A DNA stretch of 64,000 nucleotides. It comes from an uncultured Gammaproteobacteria bacterium (GTDB lineage Bacteria > Patescibacteriota > Patescibacteriia > Magasanikbacterales > UBA922). Location: assembly GCA_964344965.1 (NCBI GenBank), contig CAYFPJ010000001.1:22771-86770 (forward strand), written 5' to 3'. Position 1 is the stretch's first letter, and each line of letters starts with the position of its first letter. The position numbers were made by a program, and so were the translations under genes. Under the pieces are notes generated by a model. That model saw only the letters and a list, made by a program, of their open reading frames with translations. It did not search any database and had not been told where the DNA came from. Shown here one piece after another: positions 20,419-58,415 of the stretch.

Positions 20419-20457
20419 CAATTAACAACTAACAATCTTTGTCTGACTTGTTAATTG

Positions 20458-20604
20458 TTAAATCTTTAAGCGGTTTTATTCCTCGATGCTTGCATCGAAA
20501 AAGTGAAAACTAACATTGGTTGAAATAAGATTTTCTGCCAATACCCCGCAGCTTGCTGCGGGGATGGCCCGATGAAGTCTTACTTAAACCAAATTTACTT
20601 TTAT
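20458..20604. repeat. 147-bp element, copy A (exact duplicate of 27204-27350), ending 22 nt upstream of the parB ATG
   Basis: Identical sequence, read directly. Contains hairpins cgatg-cttg-catcg and ccccgcag-cttg-ctgcgggg (CUUG tetraloops). Confidence 0.85.
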
Positions 20605-20625
20605 TGTTAATTGTCAATTGTCATT

Positions 20626-21489
20626 ATGGCTTTAGGAAAAGGATTAAATTCTCTTATTCCACAATCTAAGTCTCGCAAAAGAATACGTAAGGAGACTAGC
20701 TCAGATAAAAATAATCATGAGCGTATTTGGTATATCCCTTTGTCAGAAATAACACCAAATAGTGAACAGCCTCGAAAGAATTTTTCTCACAAAGAGATCG
20801 AAGACTTGGTACAATCAATTAAAAAACACGGCATTTTACAACCCATTACCGTTACAGAAAAAGAAGACGGGGGGTATGAGCTTATTGCGGGGGAAAGAAG
20901 ATTGAGATCTTCTGAGATTGCGGGCTTGGCCACGATTCCAGCCATTGTGCGCAGTGCCACAAGTCAGGAAAAATTGGAGTTGGCTCTCATTGAAAATATT
21001 CAACGTCAAAATCTTGATCCAATCGAAGAGGCTTTTGCTTATCAGAGATTGATACAAGAGTTTGGGCTTACTCAGCAGGAAGTTTCTGCTCAGGTGGGCA
21101 AAAGTCGTCCTGTAATTGCCAATACTATTAGGTTGTTGGACTTGCCAGACAAGATTCAAAAAGCTTTGGTGGATAGGCAGATTAGTGTTGGGAAAGCAAG
21201 AGCATTGCTTAGTCTCAAAAGTGACAAAGAACAAATGAAAGTATTCATAGAAATGATAGGTCAAAAGGCTACTGTCCGTGATGTCGAAAAAGCTGTGGCT
21301 GCCAAGGGGCAGAGTTCACGCAAAGGTTCTGTGAGACGTGATCCTAATATCAGAGCTACAGAACAATTGATAGAAGAAAGAGTTGGTTCTAAAGTGCATA
21401 TTACCCAAAAGGGGGAGCGGGGTACTATAGTGATTGAGTATAACTCCAAAGGAGAGCTGAAGAGGATTGTGGAGGAGATAATCATTTGA
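20626..21489 (+). CDS. parB: chromosome partitioning protein ParB (Spo0J)
   Basis: ParB box GILQPITV...LIAGERRLRSSEIAG, HTH region. Start chosen at MALGKGLNSLIP. Confidence 0.88.
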   Translation: MALGKGLNSLIPQSKSRKRIRKETSSDKNNHERIWYIPLSEITPNSEQPRKNFSHKEIEDLVQSIKKHGILQPITVTEKEDGGYELIAGERRLRSSEIAGLATIPAIVRSATSQEKLELALIENIQRQNLDPIEEAFAYQRLIQEFGLTQQEVSAQVGKSRPVIANTIRLLDLPDKIQKALVDRQISVGKARALLSLKSDKEQMKVFIEMIGQKATVRDVEKAVAAKGQSSRKGSVRRDPNIRATEQLIEERVGSKVHITQKGERGTIVIEYNSKGELKRIVEEIII

Positions 21490-21530
21490 GGGCCCATGAT
21501 CTATGAACCAAGAACCATGAACTCCAATAA

Positions 21531-23009
21531 TCACTTGTTCGGTAACATGGATTTAATCCAGCCAGTTATTTTATTTTTTTGTGTAGTCTTGATGTGGGTT
21601 TTTGCAGTTGTTGTTTTTACAAAGGATAACCAGTCTGGATTTGGGCCTTTTCTATTTTTGTCTAGTATTATTTCTACTACATCACCATTCTTCAATTCAG
21701 TATCAAGACTTACCATCATGTCATTCACTAGAGCTCCGTTACACTTGTTGCCGACTTCTGTATGGATATGATATGCAAAGTCTACAGGACTAGCACCTTC
21801 TGGCAGGTCTATTACATCTCCTTTGGGGGTGAAGACAAAAATTCTGGTCTGCAAAAAATCTACTTTCATTTGTTCTAGGTCAGAAAGTTTGTTGAGCATG
21901 TCTTTTTGGATACTCACTAATTCTTTGATCCAGGCTATTTCTTTTTTTTGGGCTTTAGAACCATTTTCATCATAGTGCCAGTGTGCAGCTACACCATACT
22001 CTGCCTCTTCGTGCATTTCTGGTGTTCTGATTTGGAATTCAATAATATCTCCAGAGTCTCCAAAAACTGTGGTGTGGAGTGATTTGTAACCATTTGGTTT
22101 TGGTTGGGAGATATAATCCTTTATTCTTCCTTTCAGTGGTTTGTAAGTGTGGTGTAGTATTCCAAGAGTGGCGTAGCAGTCAGCTATGTTGGATACAATT
22201 ACTCTAATGGCAACTAGATCATATATTTTGGCAACAGAATTTTCTTTTCTAAGTAATTTTTTGTACAAACTGTACAGTCTTTTACTTCTGCCATAAATAG
22301 AGATTGTCTTTACGTTCGCCTCTTTGAATGCTTTTTCTGTTTTTTTGATTATATCTTTCAGGTATTGTTTTTTCCCCTTTATTTTTTCATCTCTGATTTT
22401 CTTCACCCTCTCATACTCCTTTGGATATACATACTTGAAGGACAAGTCTTCCAATTCTCCTTTCATTTCAGCCATCCCGAGACGGTTGGCAATCGAAGCA
22501 TATATCTCTAGACTTTCTAAGGCTATACGATATTTTTTTTGTGGAGGAAGGGCATCTAGAGTACTCAAATTATGAATTCTGTCTGCGAATTTTATAATCA
22601 TCACTCTTACATCTTCTGCCATGGCAATAAACATCTTTCTTAGATTTTCAATATATCTCTCTACCCCCCGATATTTTAGTTTCCCTAATTTTGTAATACC
22701 TCTTACTAATCCTTCTATCTCGCTGCCAAAATTTTTCCTTATATCTTCCAGTGTCACTTCGGTATCTTCTGGAACATCATGCAATAAGGTGGCTACGATA
22801 ATAGTCGGGTCAATTTTCATGTCTGCTAAAATGTGGGCTGCTGCCAAGGGGTGAGTGATGTATGGCTCTCCGGTACGCCTCTTTTGTCCTTCGTGAGCAG
22901 AGGCGGCAAAATCATAAGCAAGCTGGATCATGTCTAGATCAGCCTTGTCATGGTATTCTTTTATTTTCTCAAGCAATTTCTCAATTGTTTGTTTTTTGTG
23001 CTTGCTCAT
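21531..23009 (-). CDS. short RelA/SpoT homologue (HD hydrolase + synthetase + TGS, no C-terminal regulatory domains)
   Basis: HD motif (HDVPEDT), synthetase region (RSKRLYSLYKK...YKSLHTTV), TGS (IFVFTPKGDVIDLPEGASPVDFAYHIHTEVG). Only 492 aa. Confidence 0.85.
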   Translation of the reverse strand: MSKHKKQTIEKLLEKIKEYHDKADLDMIQLAYDFAASAHEGQKRRTGEPYITHPLAAAHILADMKIDPTIIVATLLHDVPEDTEVTLEDIRKNFGSEIEGLVRGITKLGKLKYRGVERYIENLRKMFIAMAEDVRVMIIKFADRIHNLSTLDALPPQKKYRIALESLEIYASIANRLGMAEMKGELEDLSFKYVYPKEYERVKKIRDEKIKGKKQYLKDIIKKTEKAFKEANVKTISIYGRSKRLYSLYKKLLRKENSVAKIYDLVAIRVIVSNIADCYATLGILHHTYKPLKGRIKDYISQPKPNGYKSLHTTVFGDSGDIIEFQIRTPEMHEEAEYGVAAHWHYDENGSKAQKKEIAWIKELVSIQKDMLNKLSDLEQMKVDFLQTRIFVFTPKGDVIDLPEGASPVDFAYHIHTEVGNKCNGALVNDMMVSLDTELKNGDVVEIILDKNRKGPNPDWLSFVKTTTAKTHIKTTQKNKITGWIKSMLPNK

Positions 23010-23080
23010 AATATTTCTATATTATATGAGGTTTGGTGTTTTGGCAAGGTGTAGACCTTATTTTTTTGCTAATTTAAGAT

Positions 23081-23120
23081 AAAAAAATAAAAACTCTTTA
23101 TGTATTTATAAAGAGTTTTG
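23081..23120 (-). terminator. rho-independent terminator-like hairpin (aaaactcttta/taaagagtttt) followed by a U-run on the minus strand, downstream of the topA operon
   Basis: 11-bp perfect stem plus T-run, seen directly. Confidence 0.4.
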
Positions 23121-23166
23121 TGCTTTATTCTTGAAGGTGGAAGTTTTGCTCTATCTATTTTGATGA

Positions 23167-24360
23167 TTATTGTAATTCTATTATGTCCTCTTCGATGTCA
23201 TATGCTATAGAAATATCCTCGTCACCGATATAAACTTCTTGATTTTTTGAATTTACATCAGAATTTCCCTCTTCTTTACTATGTATTTTTTTGGGAAGTA
23301 CTCTGCTTCTTTTTTTGATATATCCAGAGGGGGGATTATTTCGAGCCCCTAATGCCTCTATAAACATTTCCATGACAATTTTTGGACTAAAATATTCCCT
23401 CCCCCTTCCTATTTTACCGACCTTTACCCATTTATCTTTGTTATTTTTTCCACCTCCGTATGCCCATTTGACCACATCCAGAGCATCTAGCACTTCTTTC
23501 GCCTTAAGTGGACGATCTATTATTAATGGTGGATTTGGACCTGGGTAGTCAATTTCTTCTGTAGATTTTATTTTCATAATACTCTCTTTGTCCAACCAAC
23601 CTGAGGGTGGCTGATCTAACATTTTAATATGTTTGCCTCCTTCATATTTTTGTACCAAATATGTCAAAAGCTCGTCAACTTTTTCGTCTGGTATGGCAAA
23701 TAAATCATCATCATGCCCTGGGAACATTTTCGATCTTTCTTTAAAAGAGTTTTTTTCTATGATATTTATAAATTCTTGTTCTTTAAGAGAGGATGATATT
23801 AATTTTTGTAATCTTGTTTCCCAATTATCCTTACTGCCACCATTTGCTACTCTTTCCATAAACATTGACAAAAATGTTGAAGATGGTATCCACCCCTCTT
23901 CAATCGTGTGAGGAGCACTTTCTATTTTTTTTGCCAGACTTTCTGAGATATATACTTCTTTTGTGGTTGCGCTACTTCTGCCGTCCCCCTTTTTTCTTTC
24001 TGTACGAAATATCTTTATATCTGTAAGTAGGTCTTCTGCCCCTGCAATTTCTAGGAATCTTGTTTCTGTGATATGCATTTTTTTACAAAAGAAAACCATC
24101 GGTTCCCAACCTTCTGGAGCTGCCTCATTGATATCATTTATGTATGTTCGTAGCTCTTCAGCCTGAGCAGGCTTGATCAAAGCAGACATTTTCATTTGAC
24201 TTGTGATGTCAGCTGTCATTAACTTATATGCGTACAATAAGGTGGTAAAATCTACACCAAGCTCTCCTTGTAATTTTGTAACGAGGACACCTTTCTCTCT
24301 TTCTCTTTTTTGTGGTCTTTCTGCTACTGTTGGTGGTTTGTATATTCTTGCCCTTACCAT
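23167..24360 (-). CDS. hypothetical protein (397 aa) translationally coupled downstream of topA
   Basis: 9-nt gap after the topA stop. No recognisable domain. Confidence 0.55.
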   Translation of the reverse strand: MVRARIYKPPTVAERPQKREREKGVLVTKLQGELGVDFTTLLYAYKLMTADITSQMKMSALIKPAQAEELRTYINDINEAAPEGWEPMVFFCKKMHITETRFLEIAGAEDLLTDIKIFRTERKKGDGRSSATTKEVYISESLAKKIESAPHTIEEGWIPSSTFLSMFMERVANGGSKDNWETRLQKLISSSLKEQEFINIIEKNSFKERSKMFPGHDDDLFAIPDEKVDELLTYLVQKYEGGKHIKMLDQPPSGWLDKESIMKIKSTEEIDYPGPNPPLIIDRPLKAKEVLDALDVVKWAYGGGKNNKDKWVKVGKIGRGREYFSPKIVMEMFIEALGARNNPPSGYIKKRSRVLPKKIHSKEEGNSDVNSKNQEVYIGDEDISIAYDIEEDIIELQ

Positions 24361-24369
24361 ATGAGTGTA

Positions 24370-26643
24370 TTATTTTTTTGTTTTTTTACGACCTCTCTTC
24401 TTTGTGGGATTTTCTTTTAGCTCTATCTCACATTCTTCCAGTGTCAGATCTTTAGGCTCTTTGTCCTTGGGAATTTTGGCATTAGTATTCGTACTTGGGT
24501 CGGTGATGTATGGTCCATACCGGCCATTGAGGACTTGGATTTTGCTTCCTTCAAATGTCTTAATTATTTTTTCAGCCTCAGCTTTTTTCTTGGCAGCAAT
24601 TACTTCGAGAGCAGTTTCAATTTTTATGGTATAAGGATCTTCGTCTTTAATCGAATAAAATTTTCCTTCCACTTTCACATATGGACCGAATCTGCCAATA
24701 TTGGCGATTACTTCATTATCATTTTCATCTTTTCCTACCACCCTTGGGAGCTTGAAAAGTTCTAGAGCTTCTTCTAGAGTGACTGTGTCCACTCTTTGAC
24801 CCTTAGCAAGTTTGGCAAAGGCTGGTTTTTCTTCATCATCTTTGGTTCCTTTTTGGACAAATGCTCCGTATCGTCCGACTCGGGCGTAGATTGGTTTACC
24901 GCTCTTTGGATCAGCACCCAATTCTCGCATGGCCACTGTTTCTTCTTTGGTAAGGTTTTCAGTTTTGTCCACCAGATTCTCATGAAAGGGGTGGTAAAAT
25001 GTGGAGATGATTGGCTTCCAATCTTTTTCACCATCAGCAATAGCATCTAGATTATCTTCCATTTGAGCTGTAAATTTGTAATCTACAATGTTTGAAAAAT
25101 GTTCTACCAAGAGGTCATTGACCACAAAAGCAATATCGAGTGGTTCTAATTTTTTATTATCATCTCTCTCTACATAGCCGCGATTTTCAATAGTGCCAAT
25201 AGTCGGAGCATAGGTTGAAGGTCTTCCGATGCCATACTCTTCCATTGCTTTGACAAGTGTAGCGTCAGAATATCTGGCTGGTGGCTGGGTGAAGTGTTGC
25301 TCTGGCTTTAGTTCTTTGCAATCTACTGCATCTCCTTCAGATAGCTCTGGGAGCATTTCTTCTTTGGTTTGTTCTGGATATAGTTTGAGCCAACCTGGGA
25401 AAATGATAGTCTGACCACTAGTGCGGAACATATAATTTTTGGCAGTAGTGTCAATTGAAGTCCGATTCAATTTTGCTTCTGCCATCTGGGTGGCAAGAGC
25501 TCTTTTCCAAATCAGTGTATACACTTTTAGCTGCTTGTCATCGAGATGGGCTGACAGGAATTCTGGAGTCCAGGCAGGATTGGTCGGTCGGATTGCTTCG
25601 TGAGCTTCTTGTGCTCCTTTGGATTTTGTTTTGTATTTGCGAGGAGTTTTCAAAACATATTTATCACCATACTCTTTGCCAATAAAATTTTTAGCTTCAT
25701 CCAAAAATTTGGCTGATAAATTGACCGAGTCGGTACGCATGTAGGTGATGAGACCAGTCTGACCTTCTGCTCCAACATTTACACCTTCATACAGTTGCTG
25801 GGCAAGACGCATGGTCTGGCGAGCTGAATAACCACATTTATGACTAGCTTGTTGTTGCAAGGTTGAGGTTGTAAATGGAGGTGGGGGAGTGCGTTTTGTT
25901 TCTTTTTTGGCTACCTTGGCAATTTCATATTTGGCACCATCTAGATCAGCCAAGATTTCATCTACTCTTTTTTTATTACCAATTTCCAACTTGTCTAGTT
26001 TCTTATCATCGATAGAATGTAGCTTACCGACAAAGTCGTGTTTTTCTTTATTAAATATTCCTTGAACAGTCCAGTATTCTTCTTCTTTGAAAGCTTGTCT
26101 TTCACGCTCACGCTCCACAATCAATCGTACTGCAACAGACTGGACGCGACCAGCAGACAGTCCACGAGCCACCTTTTTCCATAAGAATGGAGAAAGTTCA
26201 TAACCAACCAGTCTGTCGAGCACTCGACGAGCTTGCTGAGCATCTACTAGTTTTTGGTTGATTGTACGAGGATTTTTCAAGGCTTCTTCGATGGCATGCT
26301 TGGTGATTTCATGAAAGGCTATCCTTTTTGCCTTACTTGGGTCTACATCAAGGATATGAGCTAAGTGCCAGGAGATAGCTTCTCCTTCGCGGTCTTCATC
26401 AGTAGCAAAGATGATTTCATCAGCTTTTTTGGCAAAGTCTTTGAGCTTTTTTACTTGTTTGGTTTTGTCCTTAGAAATAGCATAAGTAGGCTCAAAAGTA
26501 CCGCCTTCGATATCTACCCCCATCTTACTTTTCGGTAGATCTCGGAGATGCCCAAAAGAAGACTCTACTTTGTAGTCTTTGCCAAGGAATTTGGAGATTG
26601 TCTTGGCCTTGGTAGGGGACTCGACGATTACTAGTTTGGTCAT
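24370..26643 (-). CDS. topA: DNA topoisomerase I
   Basis: Toprim N-terminus (LVIVESPTKAKTI), active-site region (TYMRTDS), C-terminal Lys-rich tail. 757 aa. Confidence 0.92.
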   Translation of the reverse strand: MTKLVIVESPTKAKTISKFLGKDYKVESSFGHLRDLPKSKMGVDIEGGTFEPTYAISKDKTKQVKKLKDFAKKADEIIFATDEDREGEAISWHLAHILDVDPSKAKRIAFHEITKHAIEEALKNPRTINQKLVDAQQARRVLDRLVGYELSPFLWKKVARGLSAGRVQSVAVRLIVERERERQAFKEEEYWTVQGIFNKEKHDFVGKLHSIDDKKLDKLEIGNKKRVDEILADLDGAKYEIAKVAKKETKRTPPPPFTTSTLQQQASHKCGYSARQTMRLAQQLYEGVNVGAEGQTGLITYMRTDSVNLSAKFLDEAKNFIGKEYGDKYVLKTPRKYKTKSKGAQEAHEAIRPTNPAWTPEFLSAHLDDKQLKVYTLIWKRALATQMAEAKLNRTSIDTTAKNYMFRTSGQTIIFPGWLKLYPEQTKEEMLPELSEGDAVDCKELKPEQHFTQPPARYSDATLVKAMEEYGIGRPSTYAPTIGTIENRGYVERDDNKKLEPLDIAFVVNDLLVEHFSNIVDYKFTAQMEDNLDAIADGEKDWKPIISTFYHPFHENLVDKTENLTKEETVAMRELGADPKSGKPIYARVGRYGAFVQKGTKDDEEKPAFAKLAKGQRVDTVTLEEALELFKLPRVVGKDENDNEVIANIGRFGPYVKVEGKFYSIKDEDPYTIKIETALEVIAAKKKAEAEKIIKTFEGSKIQVLNGRYGPYITDPSTNTNAKIPKDKEPKDLTLEECEIELKENPTKKRGRKKTKK

Positions 26644-26807
26644 AAGGTCAGCAGATTAGGCAGAATATGCAGATCAAGCAGATTATGCCAGTCAAGTTTA
26701 CCTGATTTTAGGTAATTTATGCTTAGATCTTTTTTAGACTTTTAACAGCATAGTCGATATTGCACTGCATGTCAAATGGTGGTATTCTGTATTATGTAAT
26801 TTTTTAA

Positions 26808-27089
26808 TTGTATTTTCATATGGACAATCTAGGCATTGAGCAATCGAGAGTGAACGAAGTTCGTTCAGAAGTATCTAGTTTCATAAAAGATGTATCTGGT
26901 TCTGAGAGTGATATTTCTTTAGACAGTGTTATAAATGAGTTACTGTCAGAACCACGTCAAATATCTGATTTAGAGAGTAGAATAAATGCAGATTTTGGCA
27001 TCTCCTTTACAAGAGAGGAGATTGATAGTATTTCTACAGGTACAGTTGCTCAATTGATGGAGCTTGTCTCCAAAAAAATTGGGTGGTAG
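26808..27089 (+). CDS. small acidic protein with acyl-carrier-protein-like (PP-binding) features
   Basis: DISLDSV then ...ADFGISFTREEIDSISTGTVAQLMELV resembles the ACP DSLD / EEEFGI / helix-4 layout. Weak. Confidence 0.35.
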   Translation: MYFHMDNLGIEQSRVNEVRSEVSSFIKDVSGSESDISLDSVINELLSEPRQISDLESRINADFGISFTREEIDSISTGTVAQLMELVSKKIGW

Positions 27090-27203
27090 TATATATCGCA
27101 CCATATTGAGAGAAAGTAAATTTTAGATATATTTATATATCTCTTACGGAATATAGGATTAACTAACTAAATATATATTTTACATTAACTTTACTAAATA
27201 ATT

Positions 27204-27350
27204 TAAATCTTTAAGCGGTTTTATTCCTCGATGCTTGCATCGAAAAAGTGAAAACTAACATTGGTTGAAATAAGATTTTCTGCCAATACCCCGCAGCTTG
27301 CTGCGGGGATGGCCCGATGAAGTCTTACTTAAACCAAATTTACTTTTATT
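27204..27350. repeat. 147-bp element, copy B, ending 4 nt upstream of the ATG at 27354
   Basis: Exact duplicate of 20458-20604. Confidence 0.85.
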
Positions 27351-27353
27351 TAT

Positions 27354-27713
27354 ATGAAAAGAATGGACGCAGGGAAACCAAGAAAAAACGTTGATGCTCA
27401 AGAGTTGTCACATGGACATGTAAAAAGTAAAATTTTGGGTTTGACAAAATTTATAACTTCCAGTAGGGAAGGTCATATATTTCCGCAAGTAGATCAATCG
27501 CAATTGGTGCTTAACACTTTAGAAGAAGGTCGCGTCTTGGAAGATGCTGATTTAAGCTCAGTTGATTTGATATCATTTGTAGGTTCTATTGAAGAGGAGT
27601 TTGGTATTAATTTTGTTGGTCAGGAAATACACGGCTTACAACAATCAACTATAGATAAGATTGCTGAAAAAGTAATGGAAAAAATTAAAAATAAACCTAC
27701 TATGGATAGCTAG
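27354..27713 (+). CDS. acyl-carrier-protein-like protein (PP-binding domain with N-terminal extension)
   Basis: DADLSSVDLISFVGSIEEEFGINF...STIDKIAEKV aligns well with ACP [24 protein letters not shown]...helix 4. Confidence 0.5.
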   Translation: MKRMDAGKPRKNVDAQELSHGHVKSKILGLTKFITSSREGHIFPQVDQSQLVLNTLEEGRVLEDADLSSVDLISFVGSIEEEFGINFVGQEIHGLQQSTIDKIAEKVMEKIKNKPTMDS

Positions 27714-27719
27714 TGCTAG

Positions 27720-29033
27720 CTATTTTTTTGTATGTAATTCTCCGCTCAAAAAAATAGAACCGGTAACTAAAATTAGATCATCTTTCGAGGTGATCTTTTT
27801 TATACTCTCAAGAGCCTCTTTCGGATCAAGAAAAATTTTCATCTTAGTTTTTGGCAGAAGTTTTTTTAGCTTTTTATATATTGTTTGCGGGTCAGCTACT
27901 TTGCGAAAAGGGTTGCTGGTATAGCGAGTGATAGCTATTGATTTTGGGTTTAGTTTGGCAAGTTCGCGGAGCATGGTTGAGACATCTTTGTTGGCGGAGA
28001 AACCTATAATTAGGTGTATGGGTTTGCAAGTTTGCAAGTTTGCAAGTTTGCAAATTGCTTCCACTGTGGTTTTCATCTTATATGGATTGTGGGCGGCGTC
28101 GAGAATAATCGTTGGGTTTTGAGAGACTATTTCCATGCGGAGAGGTTGGTGTGCATTTTTGAGACCAAGCTTTATTTTGTTTTCTGGAACACCAAGTGAT
28201 CTTGCTATTTCTATACACAAAATTGCGTTCCTGATTTGATGTTGTCCAGGTACATTTATTTTGTAGTTTTGTTTATGGTAATTAAAAATTTGTTCATTAA
28301 AAAATTGTTTGAAAATTGAAAATTGAAAATTGAAAATTTTAAGCGAGGCTTTTTGTTTTTTACATTCATTTTCAATAATTTTCAATACTTTTTTGTTTTT
28401 TTCTGCTGTGAATACAAGATTGCCTTGCTTGATAATACCCGCTTTCTCATATGCAATTTCCTCCTTATTATTCCCAATGATTCCGACATGATCTAATCCG
28501 ATGTTGGTAATTACAGCAACATCTTTGTGAGGGATGACATTGCTAGCATCGTAGCGTCCACCGCAAGCCACCTCAAGTACTGCCCATTTTACTTTTTTAC
28601 GCGCAAAATAGACAAAACCGATTGCTTCGGTTAATTCAAAAAAAGATAGCATGTCGTACGGGGTGGTCCTGATATACTCATCCAACTTTGGTTTGATGTA
28701 TTCTATTAGCTCAACAAATTCACGTTTGCTCATGTATTTATTCCCGACCTTCCAGCGCTCAGTAATTGTAGTAGGGTGAGGAGAATAGGTTGATCCGACA
28801 TTTTTTTCACTTTCTTTCAAGATAGAGTGAAGGAAGCTGGTGACAGAGCCTTTGCCGCTAGTACCAGTAACATGTATGTAGTGAGAGATTTTTTTTTCTG
28901 GATTGTCTAGAATATCTAGGAAGAATTGAAGACGCTTAAGATACCACTCACATTTTCGTGGGTCGGTCATGTATTCTTTGCGGGGTAAGTTGAAGAGGGA
29001 GATGAGGTAGTTGTAGGCGGATTGGAAGTTCAC
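27720..29033 (-). CDS. folC: Mur-ligase-family folylpolyglutamate synthase / dihydrofolate synthase-like protein
   Basis: ATP-binding loop HVTGTSGKGS, the Mur ligase central and C-terminal domains. Carries in-frame tandem repeats (gtttgcaa x4; gaaaatt x4). Confidence 0.75.
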   Translation of the reverse strand: MNFQSAYNYLISLFNLPRKEYMTDPRKCEWYLKRLQFFLDILDNPEKKISHYIHVTGTSGKGSVTSFLHSILKESEKNVGSTYSPHPTTITERWKVGNKYMSKREFVELIEYIKPKLDEYIRTTPYDMLSFFELTEAIGFVYFARKKVKWAVLEVACGGRYDASNVIPHKDVAVITNIGLDHVGIIGNNKEEIAYEKAGIIKQGNLVFTAEKNKKVLKIIENECKKQKASLKIFNFQFSIFKQFFNEQIFNYHKQNYKINVPGQHQIRNAILCIEIARSLGVPENKIKLGLKNAHQPLRMEIVSQNPTIILDAAHNPYKMKTTVEAICKLANLQTCKPIHLIIGFSANKDVSTMLRELAKLNPKSIAITRYTSNPFRKVADPQTIYKKLKKLLPKTKMKIFLDPKEALESIKKITSKDDLILVTGSIFLSGELHTKK

Positions 29034-29097
29034 AAGTTAGCAAGTTAGCAAGTATTCAGGTTGGCAAGTATTCAGCCAACCTAAACTTGTTGATTTA

Positions 29098-29469
29098 TTA
29101 CATTGTTTTTTTATTTTCTATATTCATCCAACCACGAAGGGTTCTACCTGCTTCATTAGCTTTGCTATACAATACTCTTGCCGTTTCAATGGATATATAA
29201 TTAAGATCTTTTGATAGTATGATATAATATTTTACCTCTTCGAGAGAGCTCATTGATATCCCATAAAAGCATAATTTTTCACGAGAGGTTTTTCTATAAA
29301 AACCCTCAACAATATTAGCTGCTACAGAGGTTGAAGATCGACGCATTTGTGAAGATAATCCACATCTTTCTTCCTTTGGGAATTGTTGGGTTATTTGCTA
29401 CACGTCTAGATTAAAGGTATGTGCATGTTGCCATGCTCTTATATCTATAAATTTGGTAATTGTAGCCAT
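29098..29469 (-). pseudogene. four-helix-bundle protein (TIGR02436-like) gene interrupted by a single in-frame TAG at codon 24
   Basis: Minus-strand translation: MATITKFIDIRAWQHAHTFNLDV-stop-QITQQFPKEERCGLSSQMRRSSTSVAANIVEGF...SLEEVKYYIILSKDLNYI matches the family consensus end to end. The stop is at 29398-29400. Confidence 0.55.
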
Positions 29470-29529
29470 ATATAAAAACTTGTCAACTTGCTAACTTGAG
29501 TACTTGATGATTTGTTGTCTAGAAGTTAA

Positions 29530-31485: not shown

Positions 31486-31645
31486 GGATATTTAATCCCG
31501 ACCTCGTTCCTCGGTACGGGACGAGGGACTGGTTTAACCTGCCTGCCGGTCTTCGACTATGAAGCTCAGACTGAATAGCAGGCAGGCCCCCCGAGACTTG
31601 CTTCGGAAAAAAGGGTCCAGGGGCTTGTCTTAGGGTTCATACCTT
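31486..31645. repeat. about 150-bp structured repeat, copy 1; its internal GC palindrome is split by a 28-nt insert
   Basis: ttaatcccgacctcgttcctcggtacgggacgag...ggtttaacctgcctgccgg[tcttcgactatgaagctcagactgaata]gcaggcagg...gggtccag...catacc..ttgatt. Shared with 36248-36400. Confidence 0.75.
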
Positions 31646-36138: not shown

Positions 36139-36210
36139 GCTCTCGTCGTTCAACGGATAGGACACCAGTTTGCGGAACTGGCAATGCAGGTTCGATTCCT
36201 GCCGAGAGCA
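36139..36210 (+). tRNA. tRNA with anticodon GCG (reads as tRNA-Arg)
   Basis: GCTCTCG-TC-GTTC-AACGGATA-GGAC-A-CCAGT-TTGCGGA-ACTGG-CAAT-GCAGG-TTCGATT-CCTGC-CGAGAGC-A. All four stems pair. U33 and G37 are present. Confidence 0.75.
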
Positions 36211-36247
36211 CTATTTTTGAAGGTTTTGTACTACGTACGTTTCCTAC

Positions 36248-36400
36248 GATTTTAATCCCGACCTCGTTCCTCGGTACGGGACGAGAGATCGGTTTAACCT
36301 GCCTGCCGGCAGGCAGGTTCCCCGGGGCTTGCCCCGGAAAAATGGGTCCAGTCCCGATAAAATCGGGACTGGGGCTCATACCATTGATTTAAACTTTTTG
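36248..36400. repeat. about 150-bp structured repeat, copy 2 (intact GC palindrome at 36298-36317), 38 nt downstream of the tRNA
   Basis: Aligns with 31486-31645. Contains hairpins ccgggg-cttg-ccccgg and agtcccgat-aaaa-tcgggact. Confidence 0.75.
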
Positions 36401-47450: not shown

Positions 47451-49766
47451 TTAATTTTTTGTTTTTTTGGAGAGGAGTGTTTGTCTTTCTCTTTCTTTTG
47501 ATTCTATTTCTTTGCTTACTTTTTTTGATGCACTCCTGTTATCTTGTTCATTTATAAATTCAAAAATAACCAGAAGTATGTTGACGCCAGGAATCATCTT
47601 TAGCAAAAATGTCACACAACTTCCACTTTTGTAGGGTTTACCTTGGGTCAGTTTCATCAGTGCTACTATGGGCATTCCAATCCCTGAAAGTGTAAGTAAA
47701 TGTACAAAACACCCGGTAAGCTCATCTTCATTATCTATTTGATTGTCTATTTTCTTTTTTTGTTTTTTTAGTTTGCTAATGTCCTTATCCAGGTCCTGTG
47801 CTTTTTTATTATTTTTATTTTTTTGCTCTCTTTTTTTGTTATCCAACTCATTTTTTCTGTCTTTCTCTGTTTCGGATCTTTCCTTATTTTTTTCTTTATC
47901 CTTATCTTTTCCTTTTCCTTCTCCTTCTCCTTCTTGTTTATCTTTTTTTTCTGAATCATCTCCCTCATTTTTACTCTCATCTTCAGCCTCTTCTTCCTTT
48001 TCTTCTTCCTTTTTTTCGTCTATGGCAGAATCTTTTTTTCCGTCCAGCGCGTCAGCTGCTTGCTGCCACTTGTCAGCATTCCAAAAACTTGGCATACCAC
48101 CGGGCATTTTTTGCTTACTGTCTTCTTCTGGATCACTGCCATCTTCTGTATCACCATCTTGTTTGTCATCATTTTTTTCTTTGTCATCTTTTACATACTC
48201 TTCACCACCTGGCGCACTCTTTGCAGATTCTTCGTCAGCTTTTTTCTCTTTTTCAGATGGTTCATCACTTTCATCATCTCCGTCATCGTCCTCTTCATCT
48301 TCTTCTGCGTCTTCTGGTGAATCAGTATCATCGTCTGCATTCTCACCATCTACTGGCTGATCTTCTCCCTCGTCGTCATCATCATCAAAAAAATCATCCA
48401 TGCCTGGCACACCTTGTGCCATTCCTGCCAGTCCGTGTCCACCATCTGGTGCATCTTCATCAGTTGTATCTTTTTCATCGTCAGCTTTATCTTCGTCATC
48501 ACCTGCATCTTTTTTTTCATCAGGCCTTTTTTCACCTTCATCGGGTGTTGGTTTTTCGTCTGATGGTAGCAGATCACCACTCGGCGTATCATCAAGGCTG
48601 TCAGCTGCTTGTTGCCACTGATCATCACCCCACATGCTTGCCGGTCCTTTTGGGTTACTTGGTTTTTTTGGTTCTTCGCTTTTTTCATCTCCGCTATCAT
48701 CACCATCATTTTTACCACCTGCATCTTTATCTTTGTCACCACCTTCTTCCTCTTTTGGTTTGTCTGTTTCTGTACCATCTTTTTTTTCGTCTTCTGGTTT
48801 TTTTTGATCTTCCTTTTGCGGTGTATTGTCAGACTTGTTATTGGATTTATCGGAACCTTCTTCTACTTTTTTACCGCCATTATCTGATGCCGGATCACCA
48901 CTCGGCGTATCATCAAGGCTGTCAGCTGCTTGTTGCCACTGATCATCACCCCACATGCTTGCCGGTCCTTTTGGTCTACCTGGTTTTTCTTGGTTTTCAT
49001 CTTTTTTATTTTTATTCTCATCCTCATTTTCACCATCTCCACCTTCTTTCGATTTCTCTGGCTCTGCTTCATCTTTTGGTTCTCCTGCTTTTGTGCCATC
49101 TTTGTCGCCATCTGACTTTTCTGGATTTCCTTTTTCTTTTGGTGCGTCATCAGATTTACCATCTGACTCATTGGATTTGTTGTCGGAACCTTCTTCATTT
49201 TTTTTGTTATCATCGTTTGTTGGCGCATCAAGACTATCTGCAGCTTGTTGCCACTTGTCTGCACCCCAAAAGCTTGGCAATCCGCCTGGCATGACTGTTC
49301 TTGGCTTGCTTGGTTCAGTCGAAGCTTGTCCAGATTCTTGCTTCGGTACCTCAGCTTTTTCAGAGGCGGGTTTAGTTTGTGCTTTTTCTGGTTTTTTGGG
49401 AGTTTGTTTTTTGGGAGTAGGCTGTCGTCCTCTTTCTTGGTTTTCCTTCCTTTTTGCTTTCTTTGCCTTATCCCTCTTTTTTTTTGCTCGTTTGTTTGCT
49501 GCCTTTCTTTTCTTTTTTCTTTCTTGCGCCCTCCTTTGTCCTGGAGTTAGTTGATTGCTATCTCTGGCAGAATTTTTCAGATCCTCTCTGTTTGATGATG
49601 CTCCCCGCGTTCTATTGGTAGCTGATCGCGAACTAGGCTCTCTTCTTTTTGCTTCTTTCTTATTGCCTTGACGACGTGGAGCATCCTGATCATCACCCAC
49701 AAGAGGGGCTGGCACCTTTCTGGCAGCATTTGATTTTCTGTTTTGCTGATCAGATTGATCTGCCAT
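47451..49766 (-). CDS. 771-aa intrinsically disordered poly-acidic/Lys-rich repeat protein with four (M/F)WG(D/A)D(Q/K)WQQAADSLD motifs and a C-terminal hydrophobic anchor
   Basis: Repeats PASMWGDDQWQQAADSLDDTPSGD (x2, encoded by an exact 83-bp direct repeat), PSFWGADKWQQAADSLDAPTNDD, PSFWNADKWQQAADALDGKKD. Basic N-terminus. Hydrophobic GMPIVALMKL...VNILLVIFEF near the C-terminus. Confidence 0.6.
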   Translation of the reverse strand: MADQSDQQNRKSNAARKVPAPLVGDDQDAPRRQGNKKEAKRREPSSRSATNRTRGASSNREDLKNSARDSNQLTPGQRRAQERKKKRKAANKRAKKKRDKAKKAKRKENQERGRQPTPKKQTPKKPEKAQTKPASEKAEVPKQESGQASTEPSKPRTVMPGGLPSFWGADKWQQAADSLDAPTNDDNKKNEEGSDNKSNESDGKSDDAPKEKGNPEKSDGDKDGTKAGEPKDEAEPEKSKEGGDGENEDENKNKKDENQEKPGRPKGPASMWGDDQWQQAADSLDDTPSGDPASDNGGKKVEEGSDKSNNKSDNTPQKEDQKKPEDEKKDGTETDKPKEEEGGDKDKDAGGKNDGDDSGDEKSEEPKKPSNPKGPASMWGDDQWQQAADSLDDTPSGDLLPSDEKPTPDEGEKRPDEKKDAGDDEDKADDEKDTTDEDAPDGGHGLAGMAQGVPGMDDFFDDDDDEGEDQPVDGENADDDTDSPEDAEEDEEDDDGDDESDEPSEKEKKADEESAKSAPGGEEYVKDDKEKNDDKQDGDTEDGSDPEEDSKQKMPGGMPSFWNADKWQQAADALDGKKDSAIDEKKEEEKEEEAEDESKNEGDDSEKKDKQEGEGEGKGKDKDKEKNKERSETEKDRKNELDNKKREQKNKNNKKAQDLDKDISKLKKQKKKIDNQIDNEDELTGCFVHLLTLSGIGMPIVALMKLTQGKPYKSGSCVTFLLKMIPGVNILLVIFEFINEQDNRSASKKVSKEIESKERERQTLLSKKTKN

Positions 49767-52461: not shown

Positions 52462-52602
52462 AACATACGAATTGCGAATTGTACGCCGTGCCTGCCGGCA
52501 GGCAGGAATGTTCGAATACTATTTCCAGAGTTTTATTTACAAAATGATAGATAGTAGTGTAACCGGTATTCGTACATTAGAAATATTCGTAATTCGTATG
52601 TT
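52462..52602. mobile_element. MITE-like element: terminal inverted repeats AACATACGAATTGCGAAT / ATTCGTAATTCGTATGTT enclosing a GC palindrome (52490-52506)
   Basis: TIRs read directly. The same 18-mer TIR is found at 56255-56374. Confidence 0.55.
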
Positions 52603-56254: not shown

Positions 56255-56374
56255 AACATACGAATTACGAATATTTCGAATATACGAATACCTGTAACAT
56301 TGCTCTTTGTAATATTGTAAATAAAACTATGGAAACAATATTCGAACATTCGTACAATTCGTAATTCGTATGTT
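56255..56374. mobile_element. MITE-like element with TIRs AACATACGAATTACGAAT / ATTCGTAATTCGTATGTT (second copy of the family)
   Basis: 18-mer right TIR identical to that at 52585-52602. About 120 bp. Confidence 0.55.
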
Positions 56375-57632: not shown

Positions 57633-58415
57633 TCATTTTATCAATTTGCCAACTATTTTGGCAACAATATTCCTTGGGGTAAGGCGATTGAGCCATATCA
57701 AGACTTTATTTTTAGTACCAGTTATGATAAATGTTTTATTTTTTTTCATAGCTTGGTACCCTATCTCAGCCACACGTTTGGCTGTCAGTATTTTTCCTTT
57801 GAAAAAATCATTTCTACCAGCTGTTTTTTCAAAATTGGTTTTGGTCGGGCCGGGACAAAGTGCTGTGACAGATACACCGGTCCCAGCTAATTCGACAACC
57901 AAGGCTTCAGAAAAATGCAAAACATAGGCCTTGGTAGCGAAATATACAGCCATAAAAGGCCCGGGCTGGAAAGCTGCTGTCGAGGCGACATTGAGAATTT
58001 TTCCAGATTTATTTTCTAGCATTGAAGGAAGAAATAATTTTGTCAGAGCTGTTAGTGAAGAAATATTTAATTCAATCATATCCAGCTCTCTTTCTAGGTC
58101 ATTTTTGGCAAACTCACCAGTCAGTCCGAAGCCAGCATTATTGACCAGCACATCTACTGGTCCGGATTTTTCAAATACTATTTTAGAGTTTTCTTTTTTA
58201 GACAAGTCTGCAATAATTATTTTTATATTACTATTATATTTTTCTTCTAGATCTTTTTTTAGCTTCTCAAGCTTCTCTTCATTTCTAGCTACAAGAGTTA
58301 GATCATAATTATCACGAGCAAAAAGATGAGCAAATTCTAGGCCGATTCCTGAGCTGGCGCCGGTGATGAGGACTTTTTTGGATATTGATTGTGCGAATTT
58401 ATTTGATGATGTCAC
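57633..58415 (-). CDS. short-chain dehydrogenase/reductase (SDR)
   Basis: TGASSGIG cofactor motif, NNAG, catalytic YxxxK (YFATKAY). 260 aa. Confidence 0.85.
   Translation of the reverse strand: MTSSNKFAQSISKKVLITGASSGIGLEFAHLFARDNYDLTLVARNEEKLEKLKKDLEEKYNSNIKIIIADLSKKENSKIVFEKSGPVDVLVNNAGFGLTGEFAKNDLERELDMIELNISSLTALTKLFLPSMLENKSGKILNVASTAAFQPGPFMAVYFATKAYVLHFSEALVVELAGTGVSVTALCPGPTKTNFEKTAGRNDFFKGKILTAKRVAEIGYQAMKKNKTFIITGTKNKVLIWLNRLTPRNIVAKIVGKLIK

Follow-up and report, generated by a model that had tools for sequence, protein, structure and literature searches.

ORF1 and ORF2 are two small adjacent genes that resemble acyl carrier proteins (ACPs) in one and the same register, in which the phosphopantetheine-attachment serine falls on Ser69 of ORF2 and on Pro45 of ORF1. 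They are paralogs of each other, are absent from related genomes and are independent of the folC-family gene beside them, and we class them as divergent orphan members of a known fold. Our preferred explanation, to which we give about an even chance, is that ORF2 is a divergent carrier-fold protein that could be loaded at Ser69, that ORF1 is a serine-less and partly degenerate duplicate, and that the two are accessory genes of their lineage.

An insertion between folC and topA

The sequence-only reading had placed two ORFs on the plus strand of the window (the whole 64-kb stretch of DNA analyzed here) at 26808-27089 (ORF1) and 27354-27713 (ORF2); these coordinates are correct, and the motifs quoted for the two products are present. 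ORF1 encodes 93 aa from a TTG at 26808 or 89 aa from an ATG at 26820 (public gene call P0003), and ORF2 encodes 119 aa from an ATG at 27354 or 116 aa from an ATG at 27363 (public gene call P0001). They are separated by an AT-rich spacer of 113 nt (27090..27202) and a structured repeat of 148 bp (27203..27350, plus strand). One boundary is topA (24370..26643, minus strand), and the other is the folC-family gene (27720..29033, minus strand), which is convergent to ORF2, with the two stop codons 6 nt apart. The folC-topA gap measures 1076 nt in this genome, as against 155-188 nt in relatives. The relatives come from a FolC-anchored scan of species-representative genomes that returned six loci with FolC identities of 59-67%, three of them labeled Candidatus Magasanikbacteria/Magasanikiibacteriota, two labeled "Patescibacteria group", and the closest (67%) labeled "uncultured Gammaproteobacteria". 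In 5/6 of these loci folC is followed directly by topA across a gap of 155-188 nt, and upstream of folC the synteny with relatives continues through der, pth, and dprA, with Vut_1 in the closest locus. ORF1, ORF2, and the 148-bp element are all absent from the related folC-topA loci, and tblastn and HMM searches of the six loci returned no relative of either ORF. Because folC and topA are directly adjacent in five related genomes, the 906-nt block at 26808-27713 (ORF1, the element, and ORF2) is a lineage-specific insertion into a conserved folC-topA junction. The spacer contains a promoter-like site at 27106-27133 (plus strand) that agrees with 10/12 consensus positions, such sites being no commoner than in shuffles, and a sub-threshold match to the pan-motif RF01749 at 27080-27158 (23.7 bits against a cut-off of 36.2) in which the first hairpin alone aligns. 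No Rfam family covers the spacer or the 148-bp element.

Both ORFs are real genes. When the 1076-nt region was shuffled 5000 times, an ORF of at least 119 aa arose in 31/5000 shuffles, and both ORFs arose in 0/5000. With codon log-odds learned from 31 long genes of the window, ORF1 and ORF2 score +0.24 and +0.33 bits/codon in frame, like the known small genes of the window, and the other five frames of each are all negative; the basic N-terminal 45 codons of ORF2 score +0.32. Public assemblies annotate the 89-aa ORF1 and the 116-aa ORF2 as genes. The notion that the ORFs are unexpressed, as open frames in an intergenic insertion or as mobile-element remnants, would suit the lack of a Shine-Dalgarno sequence for either ORF, the lack of a significant promoter, their being missing from relatives, and the mobile hairpin repeat between them. 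It is very improbable in view of the shuffles and of a codon usage that is specific to the frame and equal to that of real genes. The ORFs are also paralogous to each other, other genes of this genome (parB and topA) likewise lack a Shine-Dalgarno sequence, and such ORFs are found neither with the other copy of the repeat nor in 671 kb of sequence from other organisms that surrounds the repeat core.

The 148-bp element is an exact direct repeat, 100% identical to a copy at 20458-20605 between parA and parB, and it ends 3 nt before the ORF2 ATG at 27354. The two ORFs had been said to flank a 147-bp element; they do flank it, but its length by exact repeat is 148 bp, and the flanking is incidental. 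The element folds as a long imperfect hairpin (fold z-scores of -5.4, plus strand, and -6.0, minus strand). Metagenome assemblies from short reads are interrupted within the element, with ORF2 contigs beginning ∼135 nt upstream of the gene, and one 6846-nt metagenome contig runs exactly from one copy to the other. The 26-nt apex, TACCCCGCAGCTTGCTGCGGGGATGG, is found exactly in more than 120 JGI metagenome contigs that range in GC from 28% to 57%, some of which carry archaeal-type genes (ADP-dependent glucokinase and PRK08655-type prephenate dehydrogenase). In the JGI contigs the apex heads short non-coding repeat units of ∼145, 205, or 580 nt, and in one family of these the opposite end also has a hairpin with this apex; the window element and these units have in common a core of 26-30 nt only. 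We discounted the ORFs as cargo of the element, since there is no ACP-like ORF with the parA/parB copy or near the core in 671 kb of other metagenome contigs. The element is an independent multi-copy mobile or repeat unit that is not cargo-linked to the ORFs.

Resemblance to acyl carrier proteins

The most probable identity of ORF2, with support that is reasonable though not of curated grade, is a very divergent protein of the ACP fold whose canonical site still has its serine. It had been credited with a convincing PP-binding core. The core is real and ACP-like in every library, but its PF00550 (PP-binding) score of 17.4 bits (E 0.0052) does not reach the gathering score of 20.8. ORF2 also matches seven NCBIfam ACP models at E 0.0024-0.097 (13-18 bits against cut-offs of 66-76); the curated family cut-offs of Pfam and NCBIfam are reached by neither ORF1 nor ORF2. 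When ORF2 was compared with the PDB by phmmer, 33/43 matches were ACPs, the top 33 all being ACPs (best E 0.042), and the ACP matches have one common register in which "EDADLSSVDLISFVGSIEEEFGI" is aligned to a 23-residue ACP stretch. Ser69 in the "DLSSVD" of ORF2 (119-aa numbering, Ser66 in the 116-aa form; codon 27558..27560, plus strand) is aligned with the ACP "DSL" serine by PDB phmmer, by an ACP mini-HMM, and by hhalign, and it is the candidate 4'-phosphopantetheine attachment site. In this register all six helix-II core positions are hydrophobic (6/6), and D71, E80, E81, and E82 of ORF2 fall on D38, E47, E48, and E49 of ACP in the PDB alignment. The residue preceding Ser69 is a Ser, where the attachment serine of carriers is usually preceded by Asp or His. 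The protein begins with a basic N-terminal tail of ∼20-30 aa, which is followed by the acidic ACP-like core (core pI 4.4).

The mini-HMM was built from five sequences, the E. coli and B. subtilis ACPs and three PDB fragments. ORF2 scores 17.5 bits on it, compared with a maximum of 11.2 in 4000 shuffles, and ranks 1st of 8880 six-frame peptides (∼810 kb), the next best scoring 7.8 bits; we note that the three PDB fragments are the best PDB matches of ORF2, which somewhat favors ORF2 in these figures. Alignment of ORF2 with ACP by hhalign gives P 4e-5 to 5.5e-5. ORF2 further matches a PHROG family annotated as ACP (E 0.16); PHROGs and PADLOC, taken as phage and defense libraries, gave no significant match.

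ORF1 had been put forward as a weaker PP-binding match, which did not hold up. A PF00550 search of ORF1 gives no match at E≤10, and the "DISLDSV" that had been quoted for it belongs to the loop-I region, 12 residues upstream of the attachment position. The best match of ORF1 is a full-length one to the specialized ACP of PDB entry 2LTE (phmmer, E 0.0053, residues 3-85 against 16-97), and 5/7 of its PDB matches are carrier proteins. The conserved-serine column, which had been set beforehand as telling against a carrier assignment should it hold another residue, contains Pro45: in every alignment (2LTE, mini-HMM, and ORF2) the ACP "DSL" serine falls on the Pro45 of "LSEPRQ" (89-aa numbering; codon 26952..26954, plus strand). 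Because the conserved Ser aligns to Pro45, ORF1 is, on the evidence of its sequence, no carrier of the usual kind. Two serines close to the attachment position, Ser43 and Ser49, are out of register, and strictly speaking the site might have shifted to one of them. Three of the six helix-II core positions of ORF1 are no longer hydrophobic. On the mini-HMM ORF1 scores 7.7 bits, a value that 6/2000 of its own shuffles exceed, and it ranks 4th of the 8880 peptides (E 1.7); by hhalign its C-terminal half alone aligns (P 0.0076). ORF1 is acidic (pI 4.25) and is predicted to be all-helical.

ORF1 and ORF2 are collinear paralogs. BLASTP aligns a C-terminal segment of 33 aa at 36% identity (E 2e-5), and an ungapped alignment that sets all 89 ORF1 residues on ORF2 at an offset of 21 scores 34, against -25 ± 10.5 in shuffles, of which 1/5000 reached 34. 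A MAFFT alignment of the pair places a 10-residue gap inside helix II, and we prefer the ungapped version, which the shuffles support. The likeness is strongest after the serine region, in "I..(D/E)FGI.F...EI" and helix IV; because the paralogs are most alike after the serine and not around it, the comparison suggests that a function common to the two may be independent of the serine. These adjacent paralogs are the two peptides of the window that look most like ACPs.

Structure prediction gave models of low confidence. AlphaFold2 single-sequence models have a pLDDT of 51.7 for ORF2 and 56.2 for ORF1, and their helices follow the ACP order: helix I, then a short helix in the loop, then helix II from the Ser/Pro position onward, and finally helix IV. 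This order is compatible with a four-helix ACP fold. With Foldseek, 9/10 of the top ORF1 matches are carrier proteins or complexes listed with one, at non-significant E values of 1-9, and ORF2 finds nothing significant. In a k-mer/HMMER search of 5.8 billion clustered proteins both ORFs find only the query itself, and exhaustive phmmer of ORF2 against 1.84 billion representative proteins returns no relative besides ORF2. A 1996-aa cadherin-repeat protein that appeared as a relative of ORF2 is spurious and reflects a repeated 26-aa match. Our literature search gave nothing useful on an ACP or a transferase in Magasanikbacteria/Patescibacteria, or on the hairpin sequence.

Genomic neighbors and competing explanations

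The sequence-only reading had raised a possible relation between the carrier proteins and the Mur-ligase-family gene beside them, in which case that gene would not be a true FolC. We give this next to no credence. The gene contains both Mur_ligase_M (PF08245) and Mur_ligase_C (PF02875) and scores 293.9 bits on the TIGR01499 folC model, for which the cut-off is 162.65. Because it is convergent to ORF2 the two do not form an operon, and FolC orthologs of 59-67% identity adjoin topA in five relatives that lack both ORFs. What can be said in favor of a link is physical adjacency only, with 6 nt between the stop codons, and that the gene scores below the cut-offs of the equivalog-level FolC models, which leaves its exact substrate unproven. 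To ORF1 and ORF2, FolC is an unrelated neighbor with a housekeeping role.

Essentially all genes of the 64-kb window were examined with Pfam, and among them there is no phosphopantetheinyl transferase (PF01648), AMP-binding enzyme, ketosynthase, or acyltransferase; nor does the window encode a Dlt protein or a fatty-acid or polyketide synthase. The genes it does contain encode ribosomal proteins, SecY, aminoacyl-tRNA synthetases, ParAB, RelA/SpoT, TopA, DprA, and Der, together with LytR-CpsA-Psr, RecG, RadA, a ClpB-like protein, PGM, and proteases (Pfam). A generic short-chain dehydrogenase (57633-58415) is the sole item related to fatty-acid or polyketide synthesis. The earlier remark that no genes of fatty-acid or polyketide synthesis are nearby thus holds for the whole window. 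A Patescibacterium is expected to be without fatty-acid synthesis, as are other CPR bacteria. Fatty-acid synthesis and the enzymes that process ACP, ACP synthase among them, are reported to be generally missing from CPR bacteria (bioRxiv 10.1101/465690), and an acpP gene has been inferred to be horizontally transferred into Patescibacteria (PMC12455944).

In the explanation that we favor, ORF1 and ORF2 would be tandem paralogs on a very divergent, lineage-restricted branch of the four-helix PP-binding (ACP) fold, carried, in a Magasanikbacteria-like Patescibacterium, by the accessory insertion of ∼0.9 kb that separates folC from topA. The features that a carrier needs are present in ORF2: helix II would begin with Ser69 and has hydrophobic residues at all six of its core positions, the recognition helix ends in the acidic "IEEEFGI", and the loop has the form "xLED....S.D". 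Given a phosphopantetheinyl transferase in the cell, ORF2 could become a holo-carrier that passes an acyl or aminoacyl group, bound as a thioester, to a partner whose gene lies elsewhere; the fold itself, the phosphopantetheinylation, and any cargo are inferred, and the partners of the pair may be encoded elsewhere or be absent. ORF1, with Pro at the serine position and the first half of helix II remodeled, could not be loaded at the canonical site; as a degenerate copy it would retain at most the half that binds partners, from the end of helix II through helix IV. The 148-bp hairpin repeat is a multi-copy element of its own that has landed immediately in front of ORF2.

The main rival accepts the ACP fold for both proteins and holds that neither is ever phosphopantetheinylated: they would serve as small, acidic, helical modules that bind some partner, perhaps as adaptors, as decoys, or as regulators, and the serine of ORF2 would be a relic. 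We consider it somewhat unlikely, since ORF2 has kept the complete serine context together with the helix-II core. Its appeal is that ORF1 has no serine and yet has host-like codon usage and an intact ORF, and that what the paralogs conserve is the "I..(D/E)FGI.F...EI" segment and helix IV, not the serine. It is also in keeping with a 64-kb window that has no transferase or partner enzyme and with CPR genomes reported to lack ACP synthase (bioRxiv 10.1101/465690). That the ACP resemblance is coincidental and the pair are lineage-specific orphan helical proteins of unrelated origin we judge unlikely. Independent libraries agree on ACP in one register, with Ser on Ser and hydrophobic on hydrophobic; the Pfam E-value of 0.005 already allows for the 24,736 models searched; and the window's two best ACP-like peptides turn out to be neighbors and paralogs. 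Coincidence would nonetheless fit hits that all lie under the curated cut-offs, an ORF1 that alone is non-significant against the FAS-type ACP model (7.7 bits, E 1.7), the lack of homologs in protein database searches, and uninformative AlphaFold2/Foldseek predictions. A more adventurous proposal, and a long shot, is that of a private ACP-fold pair, one member loadable (Ser69) and one not (Pro45), that serves a lifestyle-specific role in an episymbiont. Such a pair might capture or hand over host-derived acyl chains for membrane or envelope building, or might mimic host ACP and so interfere with host lipid enzymes; if true, the episymbiont would have put the carrier fold to a new use.

A functional carrier protein in this genome would provide a handle on how CPR/Patescibacteria obtain and handle lipids. 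What the evidence shows is an ACP-like pair that is restricted to one species, scores below thresholds, and has no partner enzyme in the window, and its weight is low. The analysis corrects the register of ORF1, which has no serine, clears FolC of involvement, and identifies the block as accessory and outside the conserved folC-topA neighborhood.

Comparison with known systems

Three kinds of specialized carrier resemble the pair in part. TIGR04069 (ocin_ACP_rel, an ACP-related family of peptide maturation) comprises small stand-alone proteins and is matched weakly by ORF2 (E 0.073, 13.6 bits), but this is far under the cut-off of 70, and there are no peptide-maturation genes nearby. DltC is a stand-alone D-alanyl carrier of ∼80 aa with which envelopes of the Gram-positive type are modified. 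Foldseek lists it among the weak matches to ORF1, and because the window encodes a LytR-CpsA-Psr ligase, wall polymers are plausible here; on the other hand, dltA, dltB, and dltD are missing from the window, and there is no significant sequence match. A DltC-like function of ORF1 and ORF2, in D-alanylation or envelope acylation, is purely a lead. PA3334 of Pseudomonas aeruginosa (2LTE), a specialized stand-alone ACP, is the best single match of ORF1 and belongs to the same length class. It differs in having the "DSL" serine where ORF1 has "EPR", and also in setting: PA3334 lies within a secondary-metabolite cluster, whereas ORF1 has no secondary-metabolite neighbors.

A more general counterpart is AcpP, the ACP of type II FAS (PF00550, TIGR00517). 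The pair departs from it in several respects: ORF2 scores ∼17 bits against cut-offs of 20.8 (Pfam) and ∼70 (NCBIfam), has Ser-Ser in place of Asp-Ser, and carries the basic N-terminal tail of ∼20-30 aa; ORF1 has Pro at the serine position; and neither has fab, pls, or acpS genes nearby or is conserved in sister genomes. Like AcpP, however, both ORF1 and ORF2 are small and acidic (pI 4.25 for ORF1 and 4.4 for the ORF2 core, compared with 4.05 for E. coli ACP) and have the same predicted order of helices. ORF2 in addition aligns with AcpP over "xLED....S.D", over "IEEEFGI" of helix II, and over helix IV, with its Ser placed on the attachment serine.

Placement and flanks of the 148-bp repeat

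The two copies of the 148-bp repeat, one between parA and parB (copy 1, 20458-20605) and one before ORF2 (copy 2, 27203-27350), share the same orientation, and each lies directly upstream of a start codon, that of parB and that of ORF2, respectively. The megahit k127 short-read assemblies break at both copies (window 20458-27350; metagenome contigs L005 and L006 of this region), which leaves a separate 6846-nt contig running from parB to ORF1. The adjacency of the two carrier-protein-like genes ORF1 (26808-27089, +) and ORF2 (27354-27713, +) therefore hinges on how the repeat is resolved. An alternative join would connect parA through the repeat to ORF2 and close the intervening sequence into a 6.7-kb circle, an arrangement that seems unlikely.

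Copy 1 is bordered on either side by the same 8 nt, GTTAATTG (window 20450-20613), and this pair could be a target-site duplication. The match may be a coincidence, because similar AACAATTAAC-type motifs abound in the intergenic region that holds copy 1. The sequences flanking copy 2 (window 27195-27358) are TAAATAAT and TATATGAA, with no clear duplication.

At 27080-27158, overlapping the ORF1 stop codon, there is a sub-threshold match to RF01749 (23.7 bits versus a gathering score of 36.2), the alignment of which covers just the first of the two hairpins. RF01749 is the pan motif, a leader of pantothenate genes. We regard this match as probably due to chance. Its position is curious given the carrier-like genes adjoining it.

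Variable sites and other repeats in the window

The stretch between folC and the Vut_1 gene contains an 82-aa ORF resembling 23S_rRNA_IVP/bAvd (29098-29346, -; PF05635, 67.8 bits), which has 31-nt inverted repeats on either side (29026-29056 and 29475-29505). The ORF is missing from L013, the closest relative, where Vut_1 and folC abut; this region is a second small lineage-specific insertion beside folC. Between relA/spoT and topA is a 397-aa ORF (23167-24360, -) that has no match in Pfam, PHROG or PADLOC. L013 carries different small ORFs on the opposite strand at this position, and the site is thus another variable spot.

A second short dispersed repeat of 59 nt (31491-31549 and 36251-36309, 95% identical) is GC-rich and hairpin-like, beginning TTTAATCCCGACCTCGTTCCTCGGTACGGGACGAGGGA, and one of its copies sits just 3' of a tRNA-Arg gene (36139-36211). 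Farther along, 97-nt inverted repeats (52506-52602 and 56255-56351, 86% complementary) flank a 3.65-kb segment. Besides the PGM gene and a ParE-toxin-like pair, this segment contains several ORFs that match no family. Repetition is also found inside a 771-aa ORF without a Pfam match (47451-49766, -), which contains tandem-like repeats of ∼321 nt with a 77-nt core present four times.

The repeat apex in other metagenomes

Within the 148-bp repeat, the 26-nt apex (TACCCCGCAGCTTGCTGCGGGGATGG) has exact matches in over 120 JGI metagenome contigs among the matches listed. The GC content of this set spans 28% to 57%, and archaeal-type genes are present on some of the contigs. The exact apex is also present in one IMG/VR contig. 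An exact 26-30-nt hairpin is common to a Patescibacterium and to contigs of probable methanogen origin, and this sharing may merit separate study.

The stem and flanks may also resemble a type I-E CRISPR repeat. In the metagenome contigs, the apex stands at the head of short non-coding repeat units of ∼145, 205 or 580 nt, and in one family of these units the same apex recurs in a second hairpin close to the opposite end. Judged by this layout, the units look like the hairpin MITEs derived from IS200/IS605 elements (PATEs), although no Y1 transposase was seen close to them.
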